Positions 13,559 to 47,845 of a stretch of 64,000 nt of DNA are shown here, one piece after another. Source of the DNA: Klebsiella phage KP13-16. Position 1 is the stretch's first letter. Each line of letters starts with the position of its first letter. Below the pieces are notes generated by a model that saw only the letters and a program-made list of their open reading frames with translations, made no database searches and had not been told where the DNA came from. The stretch lies in sequence record OP617741.1; one strand, written 5' to 3'. The position numbers and the translations under genes are program-made.

Positions 13559-14044
13559 ATGTTATTGTATGAACAATATCTTCTAATATACCTCCTGGGA
13601 ATCTTTTTGATTAAAGATACAAACATTAAAATTGTTTTTATCATTTTGTGTCTGGACTACCTATTTGATACGATACTTTATGATCTACTAGTTTCACCTA
13701 TTGAGTATCTAATTAGTATAACATTTCTAGAAATGATTCTAATGTTTATAGGATTACCTTTTGTAAAAGATATTAGACTGAGATTAGTATTTTCTTTTGC
13801 TGTAATTCTAACATTGTTAAATCCAATGTTTATACTTGCGATTGATTTCTTTATACAAAGAGATGATGCATTAAGTTACTATCTCTACTTGTTTTGTAAA
13901 CATTCTTCTGCTTATGCAAACGAGATTTTAATTACCTACCTTTTGACTGTATTAAAAAGAGTAGATAAAAGAACAAATTTTTGGCTAACTTTTGTAGCAT
14001 GTAACTACATACTTGTTATTGCCTCACACTTTAAGGAGATATGA
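13559..14044 (+). CDS. polytopic membrane protein
   Basis: 161 aa with about 4-5 hydrophobic helices. Its stop overlaps the tailspike start (ATGA). Confidence 0.45.
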   Translation: MLLYEQYLLIYLLGIFLIKDTNIKIVFIILCLDYLFDTILYDLLVSPIEYLISITFLEMILMFIGLPFVKDIRLRLVFSFAVILTLLNPMFILAIDFFIQRDDALSYYLYLFCKHSSAYANEILITYLLTVLKRVDKRTNFWLTFVACNYILVIASHFKEI

Positions 14045-16947: not shown

Positions 16948-16967
16948 TTCTAGAATTATTTATTCTC
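16936..16967 (+). terminator. perfect 32-nt palindrome overlapping the tailspike 1 stop
   Basis: gagaataaataattc tag aattatttattctc read directly from the sequence. The stem is AT-rich and the U-tract is weak (ttatat). Confidence 0.4.
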
Positions 16968-17049
16968 TTATATCAAGGCTAATATATAAAGCTAAAATTT
17001 GATAAATATAATTTTATCATTTTTATTAAATTTCAACTTGGAGATTTTA

Positions 17050-30367: not shown

Positions 30368-30591
30368 AATTGTTCCCCTGTTAAAACATCAACAAATGGT
30401 TTAAAAGAATCATCAACAATTGTTGAATTTAAATATTCACAAATGGATTTTATCATTCCTGCATGTGTTACCGGTTCACCTTCATATGAAGTTTCAAAGT
30501 GAAAATACTCAAATTTCAACTTTTTGCCATCGAAAGTGATATGACCAAATTGTTCAACTTTCATGCAATTCCCCTTATTTATTTTTACCAA
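30364..30591 (-). CDS. hypothetical protein
   Basis: 75 aa. Confidence 0.4.
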   Translation of the reverse strand: MVKINKGNCMKVEQFGHITFDGKKLKFEYFHFETSYEGEPVTHAGMIKSICEYLNSTIVDDSFKPFVDVLTGEQL

Positions 30592-31399
30592 GATACCACA
30601 TCAGAAATTTAAAGTTAATCTGATATTCTTTAATCTTATGATAACCTTCACTTAAGCAACCATAGTATAATTTCTGGATGAACTCAATGTCAAGGTCTTT
30701 AATAACTTTTTCAAATTCCGCAGGATCACGGCTCATCAGGAACTTAATAGGACGCACAATCAGATGGTGGTTCTTTTCTGCTGTCAATGCGACATAATCT
30801 CGTGCATCACGGATCCCGGCAAAGTTCAATGCTGCTTCAATATTAGCATCTACTGCACCTTTTGTGTACTTAGCATAGTACAGGAAATATGCATCATTTT
30901 TAATTTCATTCTGATCCAAGATTTCAATCAGTTTGTCTTCATGCGTCCCAGTGATATTGACGTCGTCGATAAAAATGAGTTTCTTACCTTCAAGAAAACC
31001 TTTGTTCAAATGGAACACATCTCCATCAATCAAAGCTTTACGCTTCTCTTTATCGAGGAAACCATAGTCGTTAATATAAGAAACTTTACGATTAATGACA
31101 GACCATTCGAGATTTGAACCACCATGAGAAACCAACAGGTCATTCATACGATCCATGAAATGTTCAGACATGATTGTTGCAGCATTCTTAACTTGATTAT
31201 AAGGTGATGGAATAACTACACCTTTGTGTTCAATAAAATCATCACCATAATGCTTGAAGAATGAGTCTGCAAGATCATAACCAAATTCTTTAGCTACTTT
31301 ATCACTACCAAACTTCAAACGAGAATATTTCTCAGGTGAAAATGGTGCAGATTTCAGTTCAGAAAAAGCGTGAGTAAAGAATTGAGTTTCATTACGCAT
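30575..31399 (-). CDS. phosphoribosyltransferase-like (PRTase/Prs-like) protein
   Basis: KKLIFIDDVNITGTHEDKL matches the PRPP-binding loop hhhhDDhhxTGxT of type I PRTases. Confidence 0.55.
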   Translation of the reverse strand: MRNETQFFTHAFSELKSAPFSPEKYSRLKFGSDKVAKEFGYDLADSFFKHYGDDFIEHKGVVIPSPYNQVKNAATIMSEHFMDRMNDLLVSHGGSNLEWSVINRKVSYINDYGFLDKEKRKALIDGDVFHLNKGFLEGKKLIFIDDVNITGTHEDKLIEILDQNEIKNDAYFLYYAKYTKGAVDANIEAALNFAGIRDARDYVALTAEKNHHLIVRPIKFLMSRDPAEFEKVIKDLDIEFIQKLYYGCLSEGYHKIKEYQINFKFLMWYLGKNK

Positions 31400-32049
31400 T
31401 AGATTACTTCTCCATTAATAAGTTTGTTTAAAAGGTCTTCAGGGTTTTTAATATGGCAGAACTTAAATCCTAAGTCAACACATTTTCCATCAAAAACTTC
31501 ACTATCCCCAATGTGCAAAATTTCGTAGTTTGCTAGGTTAGACAGCTTACTAGAAAGCAGAGTTTTAGCAAAGAATAAAATGTCTGGTTTACAAAGCAGA
31601 TGTTCATCCGAGAAATGCATAAAACTCCACCAGGGCATTCTATCAAAGCCTACAGCTTCAGACAAGATCCTTCCTGAAATAAAGTTAGTATTGCTTTTAA
31701 TACTCAGTTCATACTTGTCATCAAGGCTTATTAATTGGTCAACTAAATCTTCATTTAAACGTGGTGAGAATGCAAGAAAAGCTTCTTCACATTCGCGTTG
31801 CATTTGAGTAATTGCTTTTGGTTCCATGTTTAAATTTTTACCTAAAACATGCCAAGCAGTCGAGGTAAAACTACAAATACCTTTTTCTGCGTTTTGGTCT
31901 AAATATTTCTTTACTTTCCTATACATTGTACCTGCTTCACGATCAGTTACATTTGCATACTTTGCAATTATTTTAGTACGAATTTCACTATATAAAGGAT
32001 TTGCAGTAATCAAAGTATTCCATACGTCAAAAGAGATATGCTTAATCAT
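31399..32049 (-). CDS. HAD-like hydrolase
   Basis: N-terminal FDVWNTL is a variant motif I. C-terminal HIGDSEVFD is motif IV (GDxxxD). Confidence 0.45.
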   Translation of the reverse strand: MIKHISFDVWNTLITANPLYSEIRTKIIAKYANVTDREAGTMYRKVKKYLDQNAEKGICSFTSTAWHVLGKNLNMEPKAITQMQRECEEAFLAFSPRLNEDLVDQLISLDDKYELSIKSNTNFISGRILSEAVGFDRMPWWSFMHFSDEHLLCKPDILFFAKTLLSSKLSNLANYEILHIGDSEVFDGKCVDLGFKFCHIKNPEDLLNKLINGEVI

Positions 32050-32324
32050 TATTTTTCTCCAGATGTTTTAAGATCTTGTAAGATTTCTTTGCCTAGTAAT
32101 GAAAGTCTTATACTATACCAACTAGATTTAAGTTTCAAACAATCACTACAAAATTCTACTAGACCTTTTTTATAGAGCACAGGGATTGATTTACAGTTTA
32201 CCCTATCTACGGAGTATCTTACACTTCGATCTTCTTCACCTTTGAGACCATCACCTCTCATGAAGTATCTTGTACCAGAATTCATTCTACGTAAAGTGTA
32301 GATTTGTGCATCTGATAATTTCAT
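32049..32324 (-). CDS. hypothetical protein
   Basis: 91 aa, basic. Confidence 0.4.
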   Translation of the reverse strand: MKLSDAQIYTLRRMNSGTRYFMRGDGLKGEEDRSVRYSVDRVNCKSIPVLYKKGLVEFCSDCLKLKSSWYSIRLSLLGKEILQDLKTSGEK

Positions 32325-32326
32325 TA

Positions 32327-32632
32327 TTAAGCTGCTCCATTACAGGTAAAGAAAAAGTCATAGAATTCGGCTATGATTCCATCATCCATATAATCCTCAA
32401 TACCACCTAGAGCACCATCCTCTTCCCAATTATCAAGGCCAGCCCTAGCACCTTTAAGTGCACAAGCCCAAGCTATCGCATACTGATCTTCTGAACAGTT
32501 ATTCTTAATCTCATTGGCGTATTCAAATATCTTTGTAGCAGAGATTTCAGTAGTGAACTCATTAAAGATATTAAATTCTTCACTTTTGAAAATGAAATCT
32601 TCTGCTTGAAAACCCAGTGTACGTTTCATCAA
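32327..32632 (-). CDS. hypothetical protein
   Basis: 101 aa, acidic. Confidence 0.4.
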   Translation of the reverse strand: MMKRTLGFQAEDFIFKSEEFNIFNEFTTEISATKIFEYANEIKNNCSEDQYAIAWACALKGARAGLDNWEEDGALGGIEDYMDDGIIAEFYDFFFTCNGAA

Positions 32633-32676
32633 TAAGCCCTCTTATGTTTTGATGAACTGATTATGCCACATTCAAA

Positions 32677-33252
32677 TCAAAAAGCAACACCTTTTTTAAA
32701 GTTTCTTTCTATTGCTAGAGATGCCCTTGGTTCAGCAAGACCTGTACCATACACGTAAGGGATACCTTTTGGTGAGATTCTTTCTCCAAAACTTCCTAAC
32801 TCTAAGTCTCCGTACATCACATCATAACCAATATCTGTTTGAATGATGTCTGTTTTTAGATCAAACTCTAGGAAAAACAGAGACATTCTTTTAGCCCAGA
32901 AAACTGAATAATCTACTGGACCTTTAGGGTTATAATCAAAAATTTCTAATTTTAAAAAGATGTTAAAATGAGTCTCATCAAGAATTGGTTCGTCTCTATA
33001 ACAAGGCGTCAATGCAATAAGCGGTTTAATCCCATCTGTTATCTCTCCATCTTTCTCTAGCTGAAGGAAAGATTGTTCTGCACTGGCAACGTATTGTTTA
33101 CCATTGTAGTGTGTCATTCTACGATCTACAACACCAGGTGGACAAGTCCACTTCATAATATCTGGGTCCACTAAGTATGGTACGCTTGATAAAACACAAT
33201 CTGTGCTATACCAATCAATAGCTTTTTGAATCAAGTCGAGGTTTATGTTCAT
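32677..33252 (-). CDS. hypothetical protein
   Basis: 191 aa. Confidence 0.45.
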   Translation of the reverse strand: MNINLDLIQKAIDWYSTDCVLSSVPYLVDPDIMKWTCPPGVVDRRMTHYNGKQYVASAEQSFLQLEKDGEITDGIKPLIALTPCYRDEPILDETHFNIFLKLEIFDYNPKGPVDYSVFWAKRMSLFFLEFDLKTDIIQTDIGYDVMYGDLELGSFGERISPKGIPYVYGTGLAEPRASLAIERNFKKGVAF

Positions 33253-33500
33253 GATCGATGACCTTCTTTAAACGCACGTTTTGTGATATCTGAGAACTTT
33301 TTAAGATCTGCAATCTTCATGTCAGGAAAGTTTTCTTCCATGAAACCTTCAATAGCACCGTATAAATCAGAGAGTTCTACCAACATCATAATGTAGCTAC
33401 CTTGTTGATGTGCATCTAGAAGTTCTTCTACTTCCTCCTGAATCTTACCTAATGATCCATAACGACGTTTTTCAATTTCTTTAATGTGATAACCAGCCAT
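33249..33500 (-). CDS. MazG/HisE-like all-alpha NTP pyrophosphohydrolase
   Basis: EEVEEL (an EExxE motif) and ELSDLYGAI (an ExxD motif) are spaced as in MazG/PRA-PH folds. 83 aa. Confidence 0.45.
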   Translation of the reverse strand: MAGYHIKEIEKRRYGSLGKIQEEVEELLDAHQQGSYIMMLVELSDLYGAIEGFMEENFPDMKIADLKKFSDITKRAFKEGHRS

Positions 33501-33512
33501 TTTTAATCTCCA

Positions 33513-34022
33513 TTATGTATCTGATTTTGGAACATAGAAATCATGGTCTTTATAGCTTGCAACCTTTTTCATTGATTTTAACCAAGCTACTCTTGTACCT
33601 CTCTTGACATAAAAGATAGCACCTTTAGTTCGGTCGTGCAATACCCTCAGAGAAGGATCTTCATTCTCTAATAAAATCAAAAATTTAGCTAAGTTTTTAG
33701 CTTTATTCCAGGTGTCTTTTTCATAAATTCTTACAGGACTTCCTGTTAAGTATGAAAATTGATTCTTTTGATAAACTACTTTTTTGATTTTAGAGGGGTA
33801 ATCTTCATGATTTTTCCTATTTAAAATTACATTACCTACCATCAACATACCTTTTTCACCCTCTCCACGTGCCTCAGCATACATAGAGCACGCCAGAACG
33901 AGCGTGGTTGAATCTTTCTTAGTGCAGGTGTGTAATGGCTTATCTTTACTTGAAGTGCTCGCAGCAGCGTTCTGAAGCGCTAGTATCGCTGTCAACAAAA
34001 TCATTGGCAGTTTCTTTAGCAA
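33513..34022 (-). CDS. secreted SleB-like cell wall hydrolase
   Basis: Signal peptide MLKKLPMILLTAILALQNAAAS. CSMYAEARGEGEKGMLMVGNVILNR is a Hydrolase_2/SleB-like motif. TTG start with AAGGAGG. Confidence 0.65.
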   Translation of the reverse strand: MLKKLPMILLTAILALQNAAASTSSKDKPLHTCTKKDSTTLVLACSMYAEARGEGEKGMLMVGNVILNRKNHEDYPSKIKKVVYQKNQFSYLTGSPVRIYEKDTWNKAKNLAKFLILLENEDPSLRVLHDRTKGAIFYVKRGTRVAWLKSMKKVASYKDHDFYVPKSDT

Positions 34023-34044
34023 AAGTCCTCCTTATATTTTAAAA

Positions 34045-34075
34045 ATAGTAAAGGGGCAATTAGCCCCTTTTAGTC
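34045..34075 (-). terminator. rho-independent terminator (GGGGC-aatta-GCCCC)
   Basis: Perfect 5-bp GC stem flanked by aaa/ttt. A U-run follows on the minus-strand transcript. Confidence 0.5.
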
Positions 34076-34086
34076 AATATAAAATT

Positions 34087-35163
34087 TTATACACTACGTA
34101 ATGCATCCTCCATATCTACCAAAGATTTTTCAATTTTTTTGGCATTTTCTTTACGTACATTATTACCATTCTTATCAATCTCTACAACTTCTTTTATAGA
34201 ATTGATAATGACATTAGTAGCTTCTACCATAATATCTACATCAGCAATCCCTCTTTGATTTGCTTTAGCTGAATCTACCATATTTTGTCCTACCTGTTTA
34301 GCAGTTTCTTGAATTAAGTTGTTAGTAAAATCATCCATAACTTTTGCTTGAGCAATTTGTTGTCGCTGATTTTCTGCGTTTAATGCCAGGGACATTTTCT
34401 TTTCCCAGTATGGGATTGTTAACTCAAGAATATCATTGAACTTATTCACATTATTGAAGTTGGTAACTTGCATCATACGTATCTCTGGTGCAGCAATAGC
34501 ACTCAGTTGGTGCATTTTATTTACTTTATCTGCTTGTTTACTTAGTGCATTAACTTTCATTCGAGTTTCTTCGATTTGATCTACAGAGGCATTTGTATTA
34601 ATTAAGTTTTGTAGGTAACTCTCAGCTTGTTCAAGTGCATCATTAACAAGAATTTTATTTTGCTCCCACATACGAACTTCTTCAAGGTTTGCCTTATACA
34701 TAGATTCTAACCACTTACCTTCTTCTTCCATTTCAATAAGTTTCGTCTTAAGGTTAGCTGCAACATCTGTAATTTGTTTACGCACAGTAGTAAATTGAGC
34801 TTTCACTTCAGCTTTACGATCAATAAACTTATTACGTAAACTTTTTAAGAAACCAACTTTGCCATCAGCTAAAGAACCAATATCTACTTTTTCAGATAGG
34901 GCCATAATTTGAGTAAAGCCTTGTGCCATTACACCACTATCTGCAACAAGAGTTTTAGATAAGATTTGATTATTAATTTCCGATTGTTTTGAATTTTTAA
35001 CAATACCAAAATTTTGAATTTCACTCAATTCCATTGCATAAGTATTACCTTCTGCATCTTTTAAAATAGGTAAAGATTTTACAGGCTGAGTAAATGTTGT
35101 AGAGTTTTTGTTTGCAACATTTTCAGCAGCTTGTGTTTTATTGAATAGATTACCATATGACAT
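34087..35163 (-). CDS. coiled-coil protein, possibly TelA-like
   Basis: 358 aa, long helical and Q/N/K/E-rich. TelA-like size, and its context is next to the TerD genes. Not motif-verified. Confidence 0.35.
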   Translation of the reverse strand: MSYGNLFNKTQAAENVANKNSTTFTQPVKSLPILKDAEGNTYAMELSEIQNFGIVKNSKQSEINNQILSKTLVADSGVMAQGFTQIMALSEKVDIGSLADGKVGFLKSLRNKFIDRKAEVKAQFTTVRKQITDVAANLKTKLIEMEEEGKWLESMYKANLEEVRMWEQNKILVNDALEQAESYLQNLINTNASVDQIEETRMKVNALSKQADKVNKMHQLSAIAAPEIRMMQVTNFNNVNKFNDILELTIPYWEKKMSLALNAENQRQQIAQAKVMDDFTNNLIQETAKQVGQNMVDSAKANQRGIADVDIMVEATNVIINSIKEVVEIDKNGNNVRKENAKKIEKSLVDMEDALRSV

Positions 35164-35173
35164 AATTTAATCC

Positions 35174-36052
35174 TCAAAGTTTATCAATATCATTAATCAC
35201 GTTAAGCGCTTCAGAATCTAAAGTGCTACTCATTAAGGTTTGGATCTTAGCATACAAAAATGGAATTGTCATGTTTTTTAAGTTCTCGTATGCTTCAAGA
35301 TCTTTCTCAAGAAGTTGGTAAGTATTTTTTAATTGCAATTCTGAAATACTTATTAAACCACTTACTTGTTTTAATTTCTCTAATCTAACAGTTCCCTTAA
35401 AATCATCACTATTTATCATGTAAGTTGCAGCAACAATAGCACACTCCAGGTCACTTTTTAAATCCAAAATTTTAGCTTCTATAGATCTCATTTCTGATTT
35501 TAAAAACATGCTGGTGTTATATTTGGACTTGTTCTTAAATTGTTCCAAGTTTAATTTAATCTCTTGGATAACTTCGGTAATAATTTCCTGAGTTAACTTA
35601 AACTCCTCATTAGAACCTAAAATACGTGATAGTAGGCTAGGCTTCTTTTGCGGTCCCTTTAACTTGGAAACAGTCTGTTTTATATCATTGAAGAGGGTTT
35701 GTACTTGAAGTCTGCCACTAGTAAATTCCATTGCTAAATCTAACTCACATTGTGAAACTTCTTGATTGATGGTAGTGAGTTTCTTGAAGTTATTATCAAA
35801 ATTATCTATCCAGCTTATCACAGCATGGGTACTAATTTTAGCATCAATAGTTTGAATATCTTTTACTCGTGCATCAATTTGTTTTTCAGGGAAAACTGAT
35901 TTTATTTTAGTAACTTCGGGAACAGATACCGAATTGCCAAATATATTTTTATATGACATGTTTGATTCCTGTTTAGTTTGTTTTTGACTGTCAGAGAACA
36001 GATTAGAATAATCTTTTTGTTTATTGAAAAGGTTTTTATAGTCTGCACTCAT
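35174..36052 (-). CDS. coiled-coil paralog of the upstream gene
   Basis: It shares the N-terminal YKNLFNK / YKNIFGN repeat with 34087..35163. Confidence 0.35.
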   Translation of the reverse strand: MSADYKNLFNKQKDYSNLFSDSQKQTKQESNMSYKNIFGNSVSVPEVTKIKSVFPEKQIDARVKDIQTIDAKISTHAVISWIDNFDNNFKKLTTINQEVSQCELDLAMEFTSGRLQVQTLFNDIKQTVSKLKGPQKKPSLLSRILGSNEEFKLTQEIITEVIQEIKLNLEQFKNKSKYNTSMFLKSEMRSIEAKILDLKSDLECAIVAATYMINSDDFKGTVRLEKLKQVSGLISISELQLKNTYQLLEKDLEAYENLKNMTIPFLYAKIQTLMSSTLDSEALNVINDIDKL

Positions 36053-36065
36053 TTTAATCCCCTCC

Positions 36066-36095
36066 TAATAAAAGGTGGGCATCGGCCCACCTAAC
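36066..36095 (-). terminator. hairpin terminator/attenuator (GGTGGGC-atcg-GCCCACC)
   Basis: Perfect 7-bp stem. A U-run and then the RBS AGGAGG of the next gene follow. Confidence 0.5.
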
Positions 36096-36109
36096 AGTTT
36101 AAAATGATC

Positions 36110-36691
36110 TTATTGTACTTGGTAAAGTTCAATCCAGTCAGCAATACTCTTAGGGTATGCTGTACTAACGTTCTCTACTTCAAAACCCGTATCCGTGCGA
36201 TTAACAACCACAAACAAGATAGATGTATCATTACTTGAGAAAGTATTCATCTTAATTTCTGCAAGAAGTTCGTCTGTTTCATGATTAAGAATACGAACCG
36301 TGCCATCTTTCATTTGAGAAAGGTTCTGTTTACGTTCCTTAGCCTTATGAAGATCAACAATAATTGGAATATGTTTACCTTTTTCAGGAACTTTATCTAG
36401 GGTAATCAGGAGAGATTCACCGCCATCATCCCCATTTAAATCATCTCCAGAACTTTTGATTGCTGGAGTTTCCTGTTGGTTGAAGAAACAAAAGTGTTTA
36501 GAACCATCCACAGCCTTATTATCTTTGTCTACAATAACTGCAATTACATCAAGATCATAATCATAGCTCTTAAAGAAAGAACTCGTTTTCTCTGGTGCGT
36601 CCCAAGTCATTTCAACACGCAATACTTTCAAATCAGATGCTTGAAATTTATCTAGTGACAGCTTAGAACCTTTATCCAGACTTAAAACCAT
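36110..36691 (-). CDS. terD: TerD domain protein
   Basis: MVLSLDKGSKLSLDK...LKVLRVEMTWDAP and the 193-aa length are typical of TerD. Confidence 0.7.
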   Translation of the reverse strand: MVLSLDKGSKLSLDKFQASDLKVLRVEMTWDAPEKTSSFFKSYDYDLDVIAVIVDKDNKAVDGSKHFCFFNQQETPAIKSSGDDLNGDDGGESLLITLDKVPEKGKHIPIIVDLHKAKERKQNLSQMKDGTVRILNHETDELLAEIKMNTFSSNDTSILFVVVNRTDTGFEVENVSTAYPKSIADWIELYQVQ

Positions 36692-36711
36692 AATATTTTC
36701 TCCTGTTTTCG

Positions 36712-36747
36712 AGATTAAAAAGTGGCACTATCTCCAATAGTGCCTTT
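36712..36747 (-). terminator. hairpin terminator/attenuator (GGCACTAT-ctcca-ATAGTGCC)
   Basis: Perfect 8-bp stem between the two TerD genes; a U-run follows on the transcript. Confidence 0.5.
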
Positions 36748-36753
36748 AACTAA

Positions 36754-37335
36754 TTAGTTAGTAAAAACACCTACCCATTCTTGAAAACTCTTATCATAAA
36801 ACTCATTTACTTGATTGTAAATAAAAGTTCCATCTGCTTGTTTCTCAAATACACCAACAAGAAGCGACTCATCTGTAGAAGAACCTTTTTCAGAGATATT
36901 ACAAGAACCAATAGTTTTACCTGAGTCAAGGTCACGAAGAACAACACTAGCACCATCTACCTGAGCAAAACTCTGATTTCGTGCTCGTGCATTGTAGATA
37001 TAAACCAAAACTGGAATACGATCTCCGTCTGAAGACACATTTTCAAGATTAATATCCAGGAACTCATCAACACCATCACCAATACCAGTTTGATTATCAG
37101 GGGAGACGTTAATTGCTTTAGTCTGTTTTTGCCCCCAGTATGCAACTTCACTAGCTGATACAGCTTGCAGATTTTCATTCTTACAGACTGCGCCAAGAAC
37201 ATCCAGATCAAAATCATGTGAAGATGAATTGGTATTAGGATTCCAGGATAACTCTACACGAACTCGTTTTAGTGGAGTTTTGCCATCTTCTTTAACCATT
37301 GGCAATGAAGAACCTTTTTCCAGATTAAGTGACAT
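36754..37335 (-). CDS. terD: TerD domain protein (paralog)
   Basis: MSLNLEKGSSLPM...LKRVRVELSWNP, 193 aa. Paralogous to 36110..36691. Confidence 0.7.
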   Translation of the reverse strand: MSLNLEKGSSLPMVKEDGKTPLKRVRVELSWNPNTNSSSHDFDLDVLGAVCKNENLQAVSASEVAYWGQKQTKAINVSPDNQTGIGDGVDEFLDINLENVSSDGDRIPVLVYIYNARARNQSFAQVDGASVVLRDLDSGKTIGSCNISEKGSSTDESLLVGVFEKQADGTFIYNQVNEFYDKSFQEWVGVFTN

Positions 37336-37402
37336 ATTTATTTCCTCTCTTAGTTATTCAGTTTAAATATTATATTCAAAGTAAAATTTAAAGTCAACTC
37401 TT

Positions 37403-38116
37403 TTAGGAGACCTTATTAATCCATGCTGCAAGTTCACCATCAATGATTGCATTATACATTTGCTCATCACTAATATTTAGATTGTTAAAATTAACAAATC
37501 CTACATTATCATAACGTTCAGCAATCTCACGAAGGAAAGTGAAGTAGCTATCTGGACCAACACCTACTGTCATCCAATATACAGGCTCATCTTTGATACT
37601 ATCAAGTAGTCGCAAAGTCTCAACCCGATCACTGTTAGAACCATCGGTAATAAAGAAAACAAGTGCGGGAATATCTGAATCTGTTACAGGGACAGTTTTG
37701 GCTTTACCAAAACCAAACAGACCTTTCTTCTCTTCTTTTCCAAAGTAATGATGATGAATGTCTTTCATCACTGGAGCATAATTAGTACCACCCCACTCGT
37801 TTTTATATTTACCCTTCATGATGACGTTGGAGATGTATCCACCATAGTTTTTAGGTGTTGCAGGTTCAACCTCCATTGAGCGAGTATGGAATAGCCAAGT
37901 ATCAATAGTACCATCATCATCCATATTTGCAGAGACTGGGAGGAGTCGATCAACCAACTCTTCAAATTGACCATTACGATAGAAATCTTCTGCTGATCCA
38001 CTTTTATCCAGTGCAAGCGCTACACGGAGACAAATATCCTTGCGTTGAACACCAGCTTTTTCCAGGGACAGTTTTACAGTCTCAGTACGTTTCTCAAGTG
38101 ATAGTTTATTACTCAT
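37403..38116 (-). CDS. vWA domain protein (TerY/TerF-like)
   Basis: The MIDAS motif DKSGS is present, with a downstream T and a ...ITDGSNSD segment. The N-terminus also carries TerD-like SLEK repeats. Confidence 0.6.
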   Translation of the reverse strand: MSNKLSLEKRTETVKLSLEKAGVQRKDICLRVALALDKSGSAEDFYRNGQFEELVDRLLPVSANMDDDGTIDTWLFHTRSMEVEPATPKNYGGYISNVIMKGKYKNEWGGTNYAPVMKDIHHHYFGKEEKKGLFGFGKAKTVPVTDSDIPALVFFITDGSNSDRVETLRLLDSIKDEPVYWMTVGVGPDSYFTFLREIAERYDNVGFVNFNNLNISDEQMYNAIIDGELAAWINKVS

Positions 38117-38136
38117 ATTAGTGTTTCTCCTCTAAA

Positions 38137-38469
38137 TTAACAAATAAAGCCTGTTACAACTACATAATCAATATCTAAAGATTTTACATCTAAGATATCT
38201 TGATAGTCAATCTTATTTTTAAGATATTTTCCTACTTCACTATCCTGCACACCATATTTACTATACTCTTCCTTGTCAGCCCAAGTAGTCTCACCGTATA
38301 GCTTATAGTACCACCGTGTACAATTGTCAAGAATTTCTTCATTCTCTTCTGCATTAATATAGTGTCCATGAATGACGCTCAGATTTTTGATCTCTTCAGA
38401 ATCAGAAGTTTCAAGAACAAAAAGATCTGTTGTTTCTGGAATATTTTCATAGATAATTAAAAACTTCAT
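38137..38469 (-). CDS. hypothetical protein
   Basis: 110 aa, acidic. Confidence 0.45.
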   Translation of the reverse strand: MKFLIIYENIPETTDLFVLETSDSEEIKNLSVIHGHYINAEENEEILDNCTRWYYKLYGETTWADKEEYSKYGVQDSEVGKYLKNKIDYQDILDVKSLDIDYVVVTGFIC

Positions 38470-38481
38470 TTCTCTTCCTTT

Positions 38482-38883
38482 TTAATCACAAGAACTTGAT
38501 GAACTAGAGTCACAACTCCCACTACTATAGCTTCCACCATCATCACTACTAGAATATGAACTCTGAATAATTGCATTATGCACGTAGGTATCATCAATGT
38601 CAACAGTTTTACTTGAAGAAATGTTCCTTACAGAATTTGCTATGGTACTTTTAACTCTTTGAGTTTCTATAAGATGCTTTTTCATAGCAGAGGGATCTGG
38701 AATTTTAGTCTGATAGACACCTCCTAAACACTCAGTCTTTTTCACAGTAGATTGTGAGACATTGATCTTATTTCCACTACCAAAGCTTACTACAGAAGCA
38801 CTGGAATTACTAGATTTAAAAAGAGATTTAAACCAAGTGAAAAATTTCTTAATCATGGTCTTTTCCTTTGTAAACATTACCAA
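38482..38883 (-). CDS. hypothetical Ser-rich protein
   Basis: 133 aa with an amphipathic N-terminus and a C-terminal poly-Ser/Cys/Asp tract. Confidence 0.4.
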   Translation of the reverse strand: MVMFTKEKTMIKKFFTWFKSLFKSSNSSASVVSFGSGNKINVSQSTVKKTECLGGVYQTKIPDPSAMKKHLIETQRVKSTIANSVRNISSSKTVDIDDTYVHNAIIQSSYSSSDDGGSYSSGSCDSSSSSSCD

Positions 38884-39118
38884 GATAAATGAGATTATCT
38901 TTTTTAATATGATCTGTCAACTCTTCTGGTGAAAAATTATAAGCATACCCTACACCACAAAGATAAACTGCATTGATCCCAACTTCTTTTACAAAAAGAT
39001 AGTGATCTGGAGCTGAAAGGAGTCTTCGTTGATTTGGCACTAACCAACAACCATCACCTTTACCTGTAAAGACATCACCAACTTCAAAAACATATTGTTC
39101 AACAATCTTCATCTTCAA
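38849..39118 (-). CDS. hypothetical protein
   Basis: 89 aa. Confidence 0.4.
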   Translation of the reverse strand: MKMKIVEQYVFEVGDVFTGKGDGCWLVPNQRRLLSAPDHYLFVKEVGINAVYLCGVGYAYNFSPEELTDHIKKDNLIYLGNVYKGKDHD

Positions 39119-39302
39119 CCTCTTGACCTAATAATTGTTCATACCAATTGACATAATCTTTCGCCATTTCATATAAATTTTCCGCAGAGTTTTGCTCACT
39201 TTGTGAAAAATCTTCAATTGACTCTGCGTTGCCAATTGCATCAAGACATTGACGAAAATCACCTTCTGTATTTCTAAATTGGCAATAGCTCATGTTGGGC
39301 AT
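39099..39302 (-). CDS. hypothetical protein
   Basis: 67 aa, acidic. Confidence 0.4.
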   Translation of the reverse strand: MPNMSYCQFRNTEGDFRQCLDAIGNAESIEDFSQSEQNSAENLYEMAKDYVNWYEQLLGQEVEDEDC

Positions 39303-39348
39303 TTAACTCTCCTTTTAACCGTATCTAAAAAGCTTGTACGAATCATAG

Positions 39349-40599
39349 TTAATCCTCACACTTTAAAAGAAATTTATTATTAATAACTTTAAAATGAATC
39401 GTTTGATTATTCACTTTATTAATACTTTTATATACATCGCCTTCGGCAATCTTATGTTTGATTGAGGAATGGTCTGCTGATTTCAATGCATCTTGAATAG
39501 AATGATACTCATCAAAGAAGTATACGATATCTCCTTGTGGGACAGTTGTCAACCCGAGAGTTGCACAAAATTCTAAGAAATCACTATCATCCAGAAAACA
39601 TTTGTTATCAATGTCCCATACACGAAAAGCATAAAACTGATGTTCTTCCAACTCTTCACGATTCCCTTGAATACCAGGACCCATACACTCACCTTGAATA
39701 GCAAGTTGACGATTATGCTGTACACAATAATCTTTAAGACGTGCAGGAATATCATCTTTTAATGCTGCTTTCCAAAAATGTGACTCTGGATCAAATTTTA
39801 GTGCCAGATTACGGGAACAAACAGAAATTTGACCATCTTCCCATTGGAAAGGATAAGGCTTCACTTCTACAATATCAAGTTCTCCAGTCTCTGCATTCCA
39901 TTCACGTACCTCATCATCCACTTTTTCAACATAGAATTCAGGATTACTCATAAAAGCAATAGTTTGACTAGAACCATCTAACTTAAGTGATTTACGAAAA
40001 CCAACACCTTTCATCGTTTGGGAATACTTACCAAAAACATTTTGAATACGCTCTTCGTCTGTTTTTGGGATGACAATGGGAAAGTTTCCAGCAGATTTAC
40101 AGTTTTGCAACCCTGTGCCACCATTGCGTTCATCTGGTCTTTCGTATTTTGTTACGTTAAGAAACTCTTCAAGTCCATGACGAGATTCTTCTAGCTCCTC
40201 TAATAATTCTGCCATTGCAGTTTCTACTGAAATAGGATCATCATTATCTTGCCAGATAACAGTTAATAATTCATTCCAGAATGATGAAACTGGGAGTGCC
40301 AAACCTTGTGAAACAACGCCACGAAGTTTTTTAGTCCGAAGCCGAAAACGTTCAACATTTTTATCATCCACTTTGCAGGAACTTCCTGCTAAAAATGCAA
40401 ATTGTTTTGTTTGCACTGGGACGAAAGAATCAATTTCGAAGAAGACACAATAATCTCCGATTTGAAATTCTCCTTTCTTTACTACTACGTCCCAACCATC
40501 TACTGTAGCTTTTACAATAAGATCAGCACCTTCAATAGCTTCAATGTTGTTAATCTTACGGATAGTAACTAAACGACGACCTTCAGTAACTAAATTCAT
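39349..40599 (-). CDS. putative ATP-dependent RNA/DNA ligase (KxDG nucleotidyltransferase)
   Basis: A KLDGSS motif sits mid-protein after an N-terminal beta-rich domain. The architecture resembles DraRnl/Rnl5-type RNA ligases. 416 aa. Confidence 0.4.
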   Translation of the reverse strand: MNLVTEGRRLVTIRKINNIEAIEGADLIVKATVDGWDVVVKKGEFQIGDYCVFFEIDSFVPVQTKQFAFLAGSSCKVDDKNVERFRLRTKKLRGVVSQGLALPVSSFWNELLTVIWQDNDDPISVETAMAELLEELEESRHGLEEFLNVTKYERPDERNGGTGLQNCKSAGNFPIVIPKTDEERIQNVFGKYSQTMKGVGFRKSLKLDGSSQTIAFMSNPEFYVEKVDDEVREWNAETGELDIVEVKPYPFQWEDGQISVCSRNLALKFDPESHFWKAALKDDIPARLKDYCVQHNRQLAIQGECMGPGIQGNREELEEHQFYAFRVWDIDNKCFLDDSDFLEFCATLGLTTVPQGDIVYFFDEYHSIQDALKSADHSSIKHKIAEGDVYKSINKVNNQTIHFKVINNKFLLKCED

Positions 40600-40640
40600 T
40601 TCAACCCCTCATTTTAAATGTGTTTCTCTCAACAAGACAA

Positions 40641-40672
40641 ACTATAAAGCTTGTCTTAGTAAAAGTCAACAT
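40641..40672 (-). promoter_or_regulatory. candidate sigma70-like promoter for the ligase operon (TTGACT-18-TATAGT)
   Basis: Read on the minus strand upstream of 40599. It overlaps a 7-bp hairpin (aagacaa...ttgtctt). Confidence 0.3.
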
Positions 40673-41037
40673 TATTCTACTACAGGAACTTCAAAATTAA
40701 CTTCTACATCTTTTTCTTCATCCCAGAAGAACAACGACCATGTTCTAGGAACATCTACTTTAGCATTGGGCGATGTCCAGAATTCAACAAATGTGACGTT
40801 TTCCACTTGACCATCCATGCTTGAAGCAAAAACCATTTCTAAACGTTTCACAGGTATGACTTCACCTGCACCTGTTCCACAACAGGCAACAATTCCTTTT
40901 GGAAGAACCAGATCAGGAACTTTTAGGATTTGAATATTAGCCCCAGGATATCTTTTCTGAAGGAATGTTAAAGCATTTTCTTCATCTAGACTCCAAGCAT
41001 ATTCTTCCATTTCATCAAAAATATCATTCATATTCAA
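40672..41037 (-). CDS. hypothetical protein
   Basis: 121 aa. Confidence 0.45.
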   Translation of the reverse strand: MNMNDIFDEMEEYAWSLDEENALTFLQKRYPGANIQILKVPDLVLPKGIVACCGTGAGEVIPVKRLEMVFASSMDGQVENVTFVEFWTSPNAKVDVPRTWSLFFWDEEKDVEVNFEVPVVE

Positions 41038-41075
41038 GCTTCCTTTTTAAACTAAAGCCCCTTTCGGGGCTAATC

Positions 41076-42053
41076 TCAAGCTTCTTTTTTCTCAGGAAAA
41101 ACCAGACTTGCAATAATACCCAAGGCCAGAGTCCCAAGCACAATACAAAGACTCACATTTGCTGAGATATCATGTGGCAAGAAAGACCATTTTGCATTTA
41201 GTGTCTCACCAAAAGGATGGTAAATCAGTTTAGCACCTACAAACACTAGAACTACAGCAACGGCTTTTTCCAGATGAACCAAGTATTTAACTGCTACACT
41301 CAGTACAAAGAACAGTGCACGGAGACCAAGAATTGCAAATAACATTGCAGAGTAAACCAGCAGAGGTTCTTGCGTCACACCAATTACAGCCGGGACAGAG
41401 TCAAAGGAGAAAATTACATCAGTAAACTCCACTACAAAGACACACAACAAAGCCGGAGTTGCATACTTGATCCCGTTCTTAATGGTGATAAATTTCTCGC
41501 CATCTAGAGCCGGATGAACAGGAAGAATCTTACCAACCAGACGAGTCGCCCAGTGTTTAGAGTAATCAACTTCATCTTCCTCATCATCACCGCCTTTGAT
41601 AATAGCCAGTGCAGACCATGCTACAATCAGACCGAACAGCACTTGGAAAAACCAGTGTAAATTAAAGATTGCCGTACCTGCTGCCACAAAGATACCTCGA
41701 AATACAATGGCACCAGCAATACCCCAAAGAAGAATCTTATGCTGTAAGTGTGTTGATTTGATCCCGAAGCTAGCGAATATTGCCATGAACACCATCAAGT
41801 TATCCACAGACAATGATTTTTCTAGCACATACCCACTCAGAAACAAAGAGGCAAATTCTTTGCCATACTCTACCCAAATAAAACCATAGTATGCAAATGC
41901 TAATGCGATCCAAAATGCAGACCAAGCCAATGCAGACTTAATACCGATCTCTTTATTTTCCTTGTGTCCAAAGAAATCTACAAGGATTGATAGTGCAAGA
42001 ACTCCAACAAGAACTGCAATATCCAGAAGGGGGAACCCAAAATGATGTGTCAC
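41076..42053 (-). CDS. terC: TerC family integral membrane protein
   Basis: Multi-TM protein carrying LSVDNLMVFMAIF, which matches the TerC SxDN signature. 325 aa. Confidence 0.75.
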   Translation of the reverse strand: MTHHFGFPLLDIAVLVGVLALSILVDFFGHKENKEIGIKSALAWSAFWIALAFAYYGFIWVEYGKEFASLFLSGYVLEKSLSVDNLMVFMAIFASFGIKSTHLQHKILLWGIAGAIVFRGIFVAAGTAIFNLHWFFQVLFGLIVAWSALAIIKGGDDEEDEVDYSKHWATRLVGKILPVHPALDGEKFITIKNGIKYATPALLCVFVVEFTDVIFSFDSVPAVIGVTQEPLLVYSAMLFAILGLRALFFVLSVAVKYLVHLEKAVAVVLVFVGAKLIYHPFGETLNAKWSFLPHDISANVSLCIVLGTLALGIIASLVFPEKKEA

Positions 42054-42081
42054 TATTTTACTCTCCTCAGTTTAAAATAAA

Positions 42082-42288
42082 TTATTTTTGCTTATCAAAA
42101 CAGTACATTGCGTTACTACCTGCATCATTATACACAATATAACAGAATTTTCCATTAATATCATCATTCATGATGTAAATCTTGTTAACAGCAGAGTAGC
42201 CGTTGTACACTCGTTCAACTGTAACGCTATCTTCAGCCATTGTCAAACTACAAAACAGGATCAGACAAAGAGCCATCATTATTTTCAT
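42082..42288 (-). CDS. small secreted protein
   Basis: Signal peptide MKIMMALCLILFCSLTMA followed by four Cys. It overlaps the Bfd-like ORF by 41 nt. Confidence 0.35.
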   Translation of the reverse strand: MKIMMALCLILFCSLTMAEDSVTVERVYNGYSAVNKIYIMNDDINGKFCYIVYNDAGSNAMYCFDKQK

Positions 42289-42439
42289 TTAACACCTCAA
42301 TTATCGTTTGTTTACATTTACCACAACAAGTGGCGACTGGTATATATCTTTGCACATCCTCTAATGACTTGCAAGAAAAATCTTTTATAACTTTTTGTAG
42401 CATTTTGTCATTAATTTTATTACAAAGACATATAAACAT
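42248..42439 (-). CDS. Bfd-like [2Fe-2S]-binding domain protein
   Basis: MFICLCN...IPVATCCGKC reproduces the CxC...CxxC spacing of bacterioferritin-associated ferredoxin. 63 aa. Confidence 0.65.
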   Translation of the reverse strand: MFICLCNKINDKMLQKVIKDFSCKSLEDVQRYIPVATCCGKCKQTIIEVLNENNDGSLSDPVL

Positions 42440-44600: not shown

Positions 44601-46721
44601 TTAAACCCTTATATGTTTTACACGTTGAACAACTTCCTGCATCTTCCCCTTGTTAAAAGGTCTACTGTTAGGTGCAGATAAGTAACCTGAGACTCTCCGA
44701 ATGACGTTGATCGTTCCTTCCTCAGTATTGCCACAATCAGGGCATTCAAAGCCTTCTGCTGTTGCTTTAAACTCTCCATGAAAGCCACACTTCAGACATT
44801 TATCAACAGGTTGATTAATCCCAAAGTAATGAATATTTTCATATCCATAGTCAATCAAAGCTTCCAAGCCTTTCATGTTATTTTTGAGATTTGGTGTCTC
44901 GACATAACCTATATTACCACCTGAACTGATAAAGTCAAACCCTGATTCAACATCCCATTTAGTAAAAGGATCAACTTGTTGGTCTACAGGAACATGGAAA
45001 GAGTTAGTCAAGTATTCTCTCTTGATAGTTCCAGGAAATTTCGCATTGATTTTACTGGCAAATTTATAACACAAAGACTCCGCTGGAGTTCCGTAGATAC
45101 CAAAACCAATACCTGTTTTCTTCTTATAAGCCTCTGCCATTTCTGACATAAGACTTAAAATCTTTTTCCCGTAAGCTTTATATTCCTCTAAACTACAATT
45201 TGGATAGAGAATTTGAATTGCTTCATATAACCCTACATAACCAAAACTTGCTGAAGCATAACCTTTGTAGAAAAGTTTGTCAATAGTTTCTTCAGGATCT
45301 AGTCTAGCTAATGCTCCTTCAACAAACATCACAGGATTTTGTTTTGCTTTAGTTCCCTTAAGGCGATTAATCCTCAACATATGTGCTTCATATGCTGTTT
45401 GCATATGCTTATAGAGTTCTTCCAGGAAAAGTTTACCACTACTGACAGAATCTTTAGCTATCATTGGTAAATTCAAAGAAACTACACCAAGATTAAATCT
45501 ACCATCATATTTCTCACCTTGTTCTGTAGCAAAATAAGAAAGGAAACTACGACATCCCATGCTAGTAACGTGACCTTTTGAAGATTTTGTAACCAGTTTA
45601 TTTCTAGGGACTGAAATAAAATCTGGGTAAATTCTTTCTGCACAACACTCCATTGCTAATTGTTTAAGGTCATAATTAGGATCACCAGGATTCATGTTGA
45701 CACCTTCTTCAAGGAAGAAAATTACTTTTGGGAACACAGGCGTTACTTTATCCTTACCTAAACCCTCTTTGTGGATTTTTAGATAGTTACGAGTAATCAT
45801 TCTACCAAATTCTGAGGTATCTAAACCAAGACTAATGGTGATAAATGGAGATTGTCCATTTACACTCATTAATGTGTTAACCTGGTAGATAAGAGTTTGC
45901 ATTGCATCGTAGACATCTTGCTCTGTAAGTTGCATTGCATTTATTTTGACTTCAGCACCAAATAAATTTCTAATAAGTTTTACATTTTTATTATAAGTCA
46001 GTTCTACATATTGCTTTAAACCTGTATCAATATGTGCGCAAGTTTGTCCACCATATTGGCTAGAGGCTACAGCCTGAATAATTTGTGTCAACACTGTAGT
46101 AGCAACACCAATTGATTTAGGTTTTTCAATGAAAGCATTTCCAATATGGAAACCATTTTCTAACATGTCTTGGTAATTAACGAGACAACAGTTGCTGAGA
46201 GGGCTGATTAGATAATCTAAGTCATGAATATGTCCAAAACCGCTTGTATGCCATTCTGAGAGGTCTTTAGGTAGTATTTGAGTCAATGCTACATGCTTAC
46301 TTAAAATCCCTGCTAAGAGGTCTCTATGAGTATTTACAACGTTACTGGGTTTGTTAGCATTCTCACGAGTAAATTCTTCTGCTGTTTGTTCTAAGAAGCC
46401 AGATATGTCATTATAAAGTTTCCCATTACCTTCACGGATTTTATCTCTGTCGTGCCTATACTCAATATAAGTTCTGGCTATGTCATATGTCTTTGGATTA
46501 GACATAAGGAAATCTTCAATCATTTTTTGAACATTTGAGACTGACTTATTCTCATTGAGATTTTTAACAATATATTCTGTAACCTCGTGAGCAACAAGTT
46601 CTGCTGTGATTGATAATGAAGAGTTAGCTAGTGCTGCTTGATATATTGCATTGTAAACTTTACGTTCATCAAATTGTTCTGTGCGCCCGTCGCGTTTTAT
46701 AATTTTATGTTGATACTGCAT
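44601..46721 (-). CDS. nrdD: anaerobic ribonucleoside-triphosphate reductase
   Basis: The ATP-cone is KIIKRDGRTEQF. The glycyl-radical loop is RVSGYL. The C-terminal Zn site is CLKCGF...CPDCGN. The start was moved to the ATG at 46721, which has a GGAGGA RBS. The listed 46748 start lies in a hairpin loop and has no RBS. Confidence 0.88.
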   Translation of the reverse strand: MQYQHKIIKRDGRTEQFDERKVYNAIYQAALANSSLSITAELVAHEVTEYIVKNLNENKSVSNVQKMIEDFLMSNPKTYDIARTYIEYRHDRDKIREGNGKLYNDISGFLEQTAEEFTRENANKPSNVVNTHRDLLAGILSKHVALTQILPKDLSEWHTSGFGHIHDLDYLISPLSNCCLVNYQDMLENGFHIGNAFIEKPKSIGVATTVLTQIIQAVASSQYGGQTCAHIDTGLKQYVELTYNKNVKLIRNLFGAEVKINAMQLTEQDVYDAMQTLIYQVNTLMSVNGQSPFITISLGLDTSEFGRMITRNYLKIHKEGLGKDKVTPVFPKVIFFLEEGVNMNPGDPNYDLKQLAMECCAERIYPDFISVPRNKLVTKSSKGHVTSMGCRSFLSYFATEQGEKYDGRFNLGVVSLNLPMIAKDSVSSGKLFLEELYKHMQTAYEAHMLRINRLKGTKAKQNPVMFVEGALARLDPEETIDKLFYKGYASASFGYVGLYEAIQILYPNCSLEEYKAYGKKILSLMSEMAEAYKKKTGIGFGIYGTPAESLCYKFASKINAKFPGTIKREYLTNSFHVPVDQQVDPFTKWDVESGFDFISSGGNIGYVETPNLKNNMKGLEALIDYGYENIHYFGINQPVDKCLKCGFHGEFKATAEGFECPDCGNTEEGTINVIRRVSGYLSAPNSRPFNKGKMQEVVQRVKHIRV

Positions 46722-46737
46722 TATTCCTCCAAAATAA

Positions 46738-46759
46738 GAAGCCAGCATTAACTGGCTTA
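46738..46759 (-). terminator. hairpin attenuator (AGCCAG-cattaa-CTGGCT) upstream of nrdD
   Basis: 6-bp stem. On the transcript it is followed by a U-rich tract and then the nrdD RBS. Confidence 0.35.
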
Positions 46760-47234: not shown

Positions 47235-47845
47235 TAAAGAGTTTCTCTTGTATTATTTAAATCTTCAGAAACTCTATTAATTTCTTTTTGTAAGATATCC
47301 TTATACTGAGGATATTTTTCTATCAAAGTTAAACCTTGATTTATATACAACATTTGCCAAGCTCTATGTGCTTCAACAGGATCTGTGAAACCATGTATGG
47401 CAATATCATGAAACCTAGCCCTATATCGAGGTACTTTCTGATATTTATTTTTCTGTTCAGAAACTCCCAATGGTAAATTATTTTTAGAGTATCTTTTTAT
47501 AATATAATTATTTAAATCTTTACCTACAAAACCACAGGTGCTTGGAGAGTATATTTTACTAACCCCAGATAAGAGATCCTTGTCCAGTTCCTTTCCTTCC
47601 CAATCTTGGGTTTCCATCCAGGCACGAAAATTACCAAATGTCAACCATTCTTCACAAACACTACAACCTTTATAAGTAGGAAATCTTCTTTGGTAATTTT
47701 CACTATAACAACGCCTTAGCATATTCGTCCAACGATCATAATATGGATCTCGCCAAAATACAACTTCTTTACCATTCATACGTTTACTTTTTTGAGTTAT
47801 ATCTTCTAGATCATTGTATCCCTTACCAAAAAGTAATTTATTCAT
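47213..47845 (-). CDS. AP2-domain / homing-endonuclease-like protein (paralog A)
   Basis: The N-terminal motif is WTNMLRRCY...YKGCSVCEEW. The C-terminus is AP2-like (RYRARF...HGFTDPVEAHRAW). Paralogous to 52239..52901. Confidence 0.45.
   Translation of the reverse strand: MNKLLFGKGYNDLEDITQKSKRMNGKEVVFWRDPYYDRWTNMLRRCYSENYQRRFPTYKGCSVCEEWLTFGNFRAWMETQDWEGKELDKDLLSGVSKIYSPSTCGFVGKDLNNYIIKRYSKNNLPLGVSEQKNKYQKVPRYRARFHDIAIHGFTDPVEAHRAWQMLYINQGLTLIEKYPQYKDILQKEINRVSEDLNNTRETLYCGIGEY

Follow-up and report, generated by a model that had tools for sequence, protein, structure and literature searches.

A phage-borne, abbreviated Ter-type gene cluster with a phosphoribosyltransferase-phosphatase pair in Klebsiella phage KP13-16

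The Ter-type cluster of KP13-16

We analysed a 64,000-nucleotide stretch (the window) of the genome of Klebsiella phage KP13-16 (OP617741.1), in which a preliminary description had recognised a set of Ter-type genes together with a phosphoribosyltransferase (PRTase) and a HAD-like hydrolase. All sizeable open reading frames of the region concerned (30575-42439) are on the minus strand. Its GC content is about 32-39%, and the GC skew is negative throughout the interval between about 20 and 58 kb. The neighbouring genes encode DNA polymerase A, a primase-helicase, NrdD/NrdG and a poly(ADP-ribose) polymerase (PARP)-like protein. The Ter-type set and the PRTase/HAD pair are thus located in the replication and nucleotide-metabolism arm of the phage genome. 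The motifs by which the set was first recognised are all found in the translations: LSVDNLMVF for TerC, MVLSLDKGSKLSL / MSLNLEKGSSLPM for TerD, and LALDKSGS for the vWA protein. Judged from its sequence, the locus is a genuine phage-borne, abbreviated Ter system of two parts. The first is a putative membrane-proximal hub composed of TerC, a TerF-type vWA protein, two TerD proteins (a and b), a protein that we call X292, and TelA; the second is the PRTase (PRTase_3) with its HAD-superfamily phosphatase (Table 1).

The region is closely matched in Klebsiella phage vB_KpM_FBKp34 (phiKp34; Stephanstirmvirinae; 141 kb; MW394390), with 97.8% identity over 86% of its length by megablast. Positions 30573-38470 are 98.7% identical at the nucleotide level, and the cluster proteins are 97-100% identical. 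The ter cluster of phiKp34 (gp122-gp142) has the same gene content and order, except that the window additionally contains an RNA ligase gene and a DUF7206 gene (38482-38883). The small protein o121 is also more diverged than the rest, at 73% identity to its phiKp34 counterpart. Around the cluster, by contrast, the two genomes are mosaic: the DNA polymerases are only about 23% identical, and the NrdD gene of the window lacks an insert. At about 140 kb the KP13-16 genome is not of jumbo size, unlike the jumbo phages that carry Ter genes.

Profile searches assigned the TerC protein to the TerC/Alx metal homeostasis subfamily (NCBIfam TIGR03718, 321.8 bits against a cut-off of 246), which together with the Pfam match bears out its original identification. 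The adjoining gene for o121 lies next to TerC in phiKp34, phAPEC8 and a further comparison locus, L024, as well. The vWA protein has a complete metal-ion-dependent adhesion site (MIDAS; DxSGS...T...D), the residues of which are conserved in 16 phage homologues. The vWA fold and the MIDAS were therefore correctly called, but the protein is of the TerF type and not TerY-like as first proposed.

Pfam supports both TerD paralogs, which share 30% identity. TerD a aligns with the solved structure of Klebsiella pneumoniae TerD (2KXT) with an E value of 2e-17, and the acidic motifs DFDLD and GDGxDE are aligned between the two. These motifs are reportedly Ca2+ sites in the K. pneumoniae structure. Identity to plasmid TerD is about 32-34% for TerD a, and TerC is about 35% identical to the sole enterobacterial TerC-family gene in the phage collection that we searched. 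Recent capture from a host ter operon was ruled out, because the identity of TerD a and TerC to such genes is only 32-35%.

The preliminary description had proposed two TelA-like paralogs. One of them is TelA by its Pfam match; it is 65% identical to the TelA of Xanthomonas jumbo phage XaC1 and 81% identical to that of L005 (a viral contig described below), but only 20-23% identical to TelA of the phAPEC8 type. The second, X292, always lies between TerD and TelA and is syntenic in XaC1, L005 and phiKp34. The X292 family is small: one search gave 9 clusters at 90% identity, and an exhaustive profile search of 1.84 billion proteins returned 26 representatives; when X292 and these 26 members were compared with Pfam, none matched TelA. 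Direct comparison of X292 with TelA gave an E value of 0.32 by BLASTP and a probability of 0.9% by hhalign with a shallow profile; a deeper profile raised the latter to 22% (E 9.8e-4), with 163 collinear columns. An AlphaFold2 (AF2) model of X292 (mean predicted local distance difference test score, pLDDT, 73) is an all-helical bundle. Among viral structures, Foldseek matched this model best to uncharacterised proteins encoded by jumbo phages that carry Ter genes (fHe-Yen9-04, E 6e-8; Caulobacter phages), and annotated phage TelA proteins were matched at E 7e-3 to 1.3e-2 with TM scores of 0.3-0.47. The TelA resemblance of X292 is thus unconfirmed, with weak similarity of fold and profile. We regard X292 as a conserved partner of TelA and possibly a very divergent TelA-like protein.

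The identification of the PRTase-like enzyme was upheld by a strong match to Pfam PRTase_3. Its phosphoribosyl pyrophosphate (PRPP) loop, IDDVxITGTHEDK, is intact, and D145, D146, T150, G151 and T152 are invariant in homologues. We found no close solved structure for this protein; the one part that could be aligned is the PRPP loop, with HGPRT as the match (E 0.27). Profile matches of the accompanying HAD protein are weak and fall under the curated cut-offs. However, 21 homologues retain its motifs, namely the nucleophile Asp8 of motif I, motif II, the Lys of motif III and GDxxxxD of motif IV, and its gene adjoins that for PRTase_3 in all 23 PRTase_3-anchored loci. We therefore accept the HAD assignment on the strength of the conserved motifs and the invariant adjacency.

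The two genes of this cassette overlap. A recombination breakpoint falls exactly at the HAD/PRTase junction (31399), and relative to Klebsiella phage phi1_175008 the HAD protein is 94% identical but PRTase_3 only 54% identical. A breakpoint at this position suggests that the partners are interchangeable between lineages. Separately, an Akkermansiaceae chromosome (L026, 7857-10783) carries a HAD-PRTase_3 pair that has no Ter genes nearby and is immediately preceded upstream by a gene for a Na+/Ca2+ exchanger, an arrangement that hints that the cassette is connected with cation transport.

The cluster contains a sigma-70-like promoter and terminator-like hairpins after TerC, TerD b and TelA; a hairpin terminator is also present after TerD a. 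Three of these signals, the promoter and the hairpins behind TerD b and TelA, coincide with sites in the phiKp34 annotation. The layout of promoter and hairpins indicates that the cluster is divided into several transcription units and is not a single operon; it is probably read by the host RNA polymerase.

Table 1. Genes and transcription signals of the cluster region, in order of position in the window
Feature	Coordinates	Strand	Length	Match or remark
PRTase_3, ComF-like type I phosphoribosyltransferase	30575-31399	-		Pfam PRTase_3 E 7.5e-53
HAD-superfamily phosphatase (REG-2-like)	31399-32049	-		Pfam E 0.0064; TIGR02252 E 3.2e-7
Class II aminoacyl-tRNA synthetase (aaRS)-core-like protein	32677-33252	-	191 aa	phrog_4806 E 6e-58; profile match to SerRS 2dq3 E 1.9e-5
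o83	33249-33500	-	83 aa	invariant ExxE...ExxD pattern
SleB-like cell-wall hydrolase, N-terminal signal peptide, secreted	33513-34022	-		Pfam Hydrolase_2 E 9.5e-20
Terminator-like hairpin after TelA	34050-34070	-
TelA	34087-35163	-	358 aa	Pfam TelA E 8e-35
X292, predicted all-helical putative partner protein	35174-36052	-	292 aa	small family; no Pfam match
Terminator-like hairpin after TerD b	36073-36092	-
TerD paralog b	36110-36691	-	193 aa	Pfam TerD E 4.1e-32
TerD paralog a, Ca2+-binding beta-sandwich type	36754-37335	-	193 aa	Pfam TerD E 4.7e-26
Sigma-70-like promoter upstream of TerD a	37369-37397	-		TTGACT-17-TATAAT; 11/12 consensus match
vWA, TerF C-terminal type	37403-38116	-		Pfam vWA-TerF-like E 2.6e-38
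DUF7206 protein, Ser-rich tail	38482-38883	-		indel relative to phiKp34
RNA ligase, DRB0094-type	39349-40599	-		Pfam RNA_ligase and PHA02142 OB domain; TIGR02306 226 bits against cut-off 151
o121, small conserved protein encoded just downstream of TerC	40672-41037	-		phrog_27498 E 3.5e-26
Terminator-like hairpin after TerC	41056-41071	-
TerC/Alx-family integral membrane protein	41076-42053	-	325 aa	Pfam TerC E 5e-41
Bfd-like [2Fe-2S] protein	42248-42439	-		Pfam Fer2_BFD E 2e-11

Gene linkage in other phages and in bacteria

We used tblastn against a collection of 50,697 phage records to assess how widely the cluster genes are distributed. TerC is present in 174 records, PRTase_3 in 156 and TelA in 124, the last including GAP32/121Q/RaK2-type jumbo phages, phiPsa phages and Lak phages. 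Only 5 records contain the TerD b type at E <= 1e-5. Scans of viral contigs with single-protein queries returned one locus for TerD b and none for X292, and a scan of genome contigs with the PRTase profile returned four loci. One of these four (L025) looks like a phAPEC8-type phage contig, with a GC content of 38% and a gene pair for an aaRS-like protein and o83.

The linkage of the genes is kept in three gene orders. The first is that shared by the window and phiKp34. In the second, found in Stephanstirmvirinae of the phAPEC8/phi92 type, PRTase_3, HAD, vWA-TerF-like, TelA, TerD-like and TerC genes all lie within about 10 kb but in the order HAD-PRTase-macro-TerC ... SprT-like-TelA ... vWA-TerD. 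This type differs from the window in having one TerD and no X292, in the macro-domain protein that adjoins the PRTase, and in an interposed SprT-like protein. TerC is 88-95% identical in phAPEC8-type phages, and the identities to phAPEC8 and phi1_175008 are 49-54% for PRTase_3, 54-94% for HAD and 39% for the vWA protein. The third order is that of a 153-kb IMG/VR contig (L005/L009), which reads TerC ... vWA-TerD-TerD-X-TelA-HAD-PRTase with 59-81% identity to the window proteins, HAD being 30% identical. XaC1 has the arrangement vWA ... TerD-TerD-X-TelA; the last four proteins are 56-76% identical to those of the window (TerD a 76%, TerD b 70%) and the vWA protein 29%, but its PRTase_3 (gene 251) is far from the Ter block. 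Of 18 independent phage loci carrying the HAD-PRTase_3 pair, 11 have one or more Ter genes no further than 10 kb away. That linkage has survived three gene orders as well as swaps of modules argues that the genes are functionally coupled, and chance adjacency is ruled out.

The bacterial side of the comparison consists of one good locus together with the literature. This locus, in a Haliea metagenome-assembled genome (L028), contains DUF475/TerC-like, TerD, vWA, vWA, vWA with TerY_C, and PP2C ... TerD, HAD and PRTase_3 genes, and thus confirms that bacterial Ter neighbourhoods include the HAD-PRTase_3 pair. The clustering first noticed in the window is therefore non-random and is syntenic in relatives, both in several phage lineages and in one bacterial ter locus; neither the profile searches for TerD and TerC nor the synteny comparison contradicted it.

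The description of the set as almost complete, on the other hand, was overstated. No TerB was detected by Pfam among the 20 cluster proteins scanned and none is annotated in the phiKp34 region, and ATP-grasp and TerY-phosphatase-kinase genes are absent by Pfam from the cluster and from the phiKp34 annotation; the bacterial locus L028 provides a comparison. Relative to bacterial ter loci, the phage set is without TerB, the TerA/Z/E/F array, TerY_C, the PP2C phosphatase and the kinase, and it matches neither the content nor the order of the classical terZABCDEF operon of R478, O157 and Klebsiella plasmids. TerB is optional in abbreviated phage versions of Ter systems (PMC7824862). Of the features of Ter systems given in the same source, the locus has TerD, TerC, TelA, a vWA protein with MIDAS, the PRTase with HAD, and conserved linkage.

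Possible functions of the cluster

The cluster, the general phenomenon and the leading hypothesis for its function are already published, and the window does not bring a new kind of system. In phiKp34, terC (gp124), a terF-type vWA gene (gp131), two terD genes (gp132 and gp133) and telA (gp135) have been described, and such ter subsets have been noted in virulent phages (Estrada Bonilla et al. 2021, PMC8386662); that study did not tie the PRTase/HAD genes or X292 to the cluster. A review of Ter systems (Iyer et al. 2021, PMC7824862) describes them in jumbo phages as well as in "certain other related smaller tailed phages", with Acinetobacter phage ME3, Caulobacter jumbo phages and XaC1 as examples of jumbo carriers, and the same genes appear in papers on phiPsa374 and XaC1. 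The functional ideas of the preliminary description (handling of Ca2+ or membrane stress, and a nucleoside-like metabolite) agree with the published hypotheses. The comparisons made here add useful but incremental detail: X292 as a TelA partner, module exchange with jumbo phages, the invariant HAD-PRTase_3 pair, and the non-membership of the RNA ligase, the Bfd-like protein and the aaRS-like/o83 pair.

We tentatively favour, at slightly below an even chance, a function in which a Ca2+-dependent assembly beneath the membrane guards the envelope of the infected cell or excludes competitors, with a nucleoside made by PRTase_3 and HAD as its ligand. The genes would be transcribed from host-type promoters in the replication arm, and TerD, the vWA protein, X292 and TelA would then assemble beneath the inner membrane beside TerC in a manner dependent on divalent cations. 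Such an assembly would stabilise the envelope and ion balance of the infected cell and block further attacks made across the inner membrane, for example by superinfecting phages injecting their DNA or by pore-forming colicins, and the investment of the phage would thereby be protected until lysis. PRTase_3 would couple a base to PRPP and the HAD phosphatase would strip the 5'-phosphate, giving a nucleoside-like product that could serve as a ligand or signal for the hub. Imm and Sp of phage T4 are early inner-membrane phage proteins that block the entry of secondary phage DNA. The likeness to this superinfection exclusion system is one of proposed role, a functional analogy only, with no relationship of sequence or fold.

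Profile matches, conserved motifs, gene linkage, promoter signals and literature precedent together lead us to favour this envelope-guarding function. The precedent is of two kinds. The R478 ter cluster is credited with phage inhibition and colicin resistance (Whelan 1995, as summarised in PMC8386662), and phage Ter systems have been proposed to act against superinfecting phages, with PRTase and HAD functioning in biosynthesis of a signal (Iyer et al. 2021, PMC7824862).

Several observations nevertheless weigh against the envelope-guarding function. In seven of the 18 PRTase_3-HAD loci the 10-kb flanks contain no Ter gene, which, together with the separation of PRTase_3 from the Ter block in XaC1, suggests that the cassette may work independently. 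TerC/Alx proteins are described as Mn2+ exporters, and this fits plain metal homeostasis. Comparison with PADLOC defence models gave no meaningful match among the cluster proteins, and a literature search for experiments on any phage Ter gene found none. TerB together with TerD has been considered a possible signal-sensing domain (PMC7824862), and the cluster has no TerB. The burst size of phiKp34, which is 12, was listed with these points but is neutral.

The same genes could instead serve metal-ion homeostasis without any exclusion of competitors, an explanation that we consider rather unlikely. TerC/Alx would export Mn2+ (or Ca2+) or deliver it across the inner membrane, and the TerD and vWA proteins would buffer or sense the cation. 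The metal supply of phage enzymes would thereby be tuned, or that of secreted proteins, the adjoining cell-wall hydrolase being one example. The membership of TerC in the TerC/Alx subfamily is consistent with this, as are its standing as the most conserved and most widespread component of the cluster and the retention of the Ca2+-site motifs in TerD. The Na+/Ca2+ exchanger gene beside HAD-PRTase_3 in Akkermansiaceae and the recurrence of the secreted hydrolase nearby point in the same direction. Metal homeostasis, however, leaves TelA, X292 and the PRTase/HAD cassette unexplained, and neither a Mn riboswitch upstream of TerC/Alx nor any other Rfam element was matched anywhere in the window.

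Alternatively, the hub could act in counter-defence, by shielding the inner membrane from pore-forming or depolarising abortive-infection effectors such that the phage cycle is completed. The location of the genes in a host-promoter-driven arm and their wide occurrence in large virulent phages would both suit such a role, and bacterial Ter is said to confer resistance to pore-forming colicins (as summarised in PMC8386662). Sequence data cannot tell counter-defence from superinfection exclusion, however, and no PADLOC or anti-defence family was matched; we regard it as unlikely. Similarly little weight is given to a broader anti-defence function, in which a Ca2+-dependent lattice of TerD, vWA, X292 and TelA beneath the membrane, tuned by the nucleoside from PRTase_3 and HAD, would act with TerC against abortive-infection effectors, colicins and superinfecting phages alike. 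X292 would in that case be an unrecognised, phage-restricted, TelA-like subunit of the lattice.

It is considerably less probable that PRTase_3 and HAD make a modified nucleoside or nucleotide for phage nucleic acids, the Ter genes being merely near. The cassette does lie in the nucleotide-metabolism arm, near NrdD/NrdG, and the seven loci without near Ter genes would be accounted for. However, the same cassette is tied to TerD in bacteria, and family PF15610 was reportedly defined from Ter neighbourhoods. In addition, the phosphatase step of HAD leads to a nucleoside and not to a polymerisable nucleotide, and no DNA-modification enzymes are adjacent. We consider it most improbable that the genes are a host-benefit 'moron' for tellurite or xenobiotic resistance, as their annotation names and the classing of such genes as tellurite-resistance auxiliary metabolic genes in some papers might suggest, or that unrelated genes are adjacent by chance: the carrier is a virulent myovirus, the set is missing TerB and further genes of the ter operon, tellurite resistance was judged unlikely by the phiPsa374 authors, and recurrent synteny excludes chance adjacency.

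Ter genes are among the most widespread bacterial stress genes without an explained function, and the Ter hub recurs in well over 100 sequenced virulent phages. The phage version, with about nine genes, is small and genetically tractable, and phiKp34 or KP13-16 would be a good model in which to address the role of the hub at the membrane and the nucleoside made by PRTase_3 and HAD.

Neighbouring genes and other features of the window

Several genes that lie within the cluster region are neighbours and not components of the Ter system. The RNA ligase is a true homologue at the equivalog level (TIGR02306), as had been proposed from its sequence. Its nearest relatives (64-79% identity) are in the jumbo phages EJP2, fHe-Yen9-04 and CBB, and none is in Stephanstirmvirinae. 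We rejected it as a Ter component, because it is an indel absent from the 97.8%-identical phiKp34 and because the relatives in jumbo phages are not adjacent to TelA. The ligase family does occur beside TelA in two unrelated IMG/VR loci (L017 and L021), which we regard as a weak lead. The Bfd-like [2Fe-2S] protein was likewise recognised correctly, by its Fer2_BFD domain, but among 24 loci it is near the cluster only in phiKp34 and is thus not a conserved neighbour of TerC.

The preliminary description had overlooked two genes, those for the aaRS-core-like protein and the SleB-like hydrolase. The former is closest to SerRS/PylRS and has at least 142 homologues. Its gene overlaps that for o83 by 4 nt, and the pair is conserved in phAPEC8-type phages at a different location (gp042/gp041 in phAPEC8, next to ribonucleotide reductase genes). 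The o83 motif, E23-x2-E26 ... E42-x2-D45, is invariant in four homologues. The MazG/HisE-like NTP pyrophosphatase that had been listed in the set is presumably o83, but this function is unconfirmed beyond the motif: o83 had no match in Pfam, NCBIfam or the PDB (phmmer and profile searches), and a single-sequence AF2 model (pLDDT 66) had no Foldseek match in the PDB. The aaRS-like/o83 pair is a neighbour and not a component. The SleB-like hydrolase is probably also only a neighbour, although envelope hydrolysis and the Ter hub may be linked; it recurs near TerD or PRTase in L005 and in the phAPEC8-type loci L015, L016, L022 and L024, in the latter four within about 1 kb of TerD.

Outside the cluster region, three genes of the replication and nucleotide-metabolism arm merit mention. 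The family-A DNA polymerase (20528-23854, minus strand) has 1108 aa, compared with 738 aa in phiKp34, while the flanking DNA is 91-99% identical. About 250 of its residues (~587-835) have no counterpart in phiKp34; the segment starts with 'HYC VPMDAQALTRKGWIGYHDLKEGDEILGY' and looks like an intein. Conversely, NrdD (44601-46748, minus strand) has 715 aa, and the phiKp34 gene is about 870 nt longer owing to an insertion, possibly an intein or a homing element. The gene at 47845-49134 (minus strand; gp111 in phiKp34) encodes a poly(ADP-ribose) polymerase of eukaryote-like type, in which WGR, PARP regulatory and PARP catalytic domains are combined.

On the opposite strand, positions 14041-19206 encode two large tail-spike/depolymerase-like proteins, one composed of a beta-helix with a Peptidase_S74 chaperone domain and the other containing a pectate-lyase-like domain. 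For phiKp34, no predicted depolymerase has been reported (PMC8386662). This region may set a different capsule specificity.

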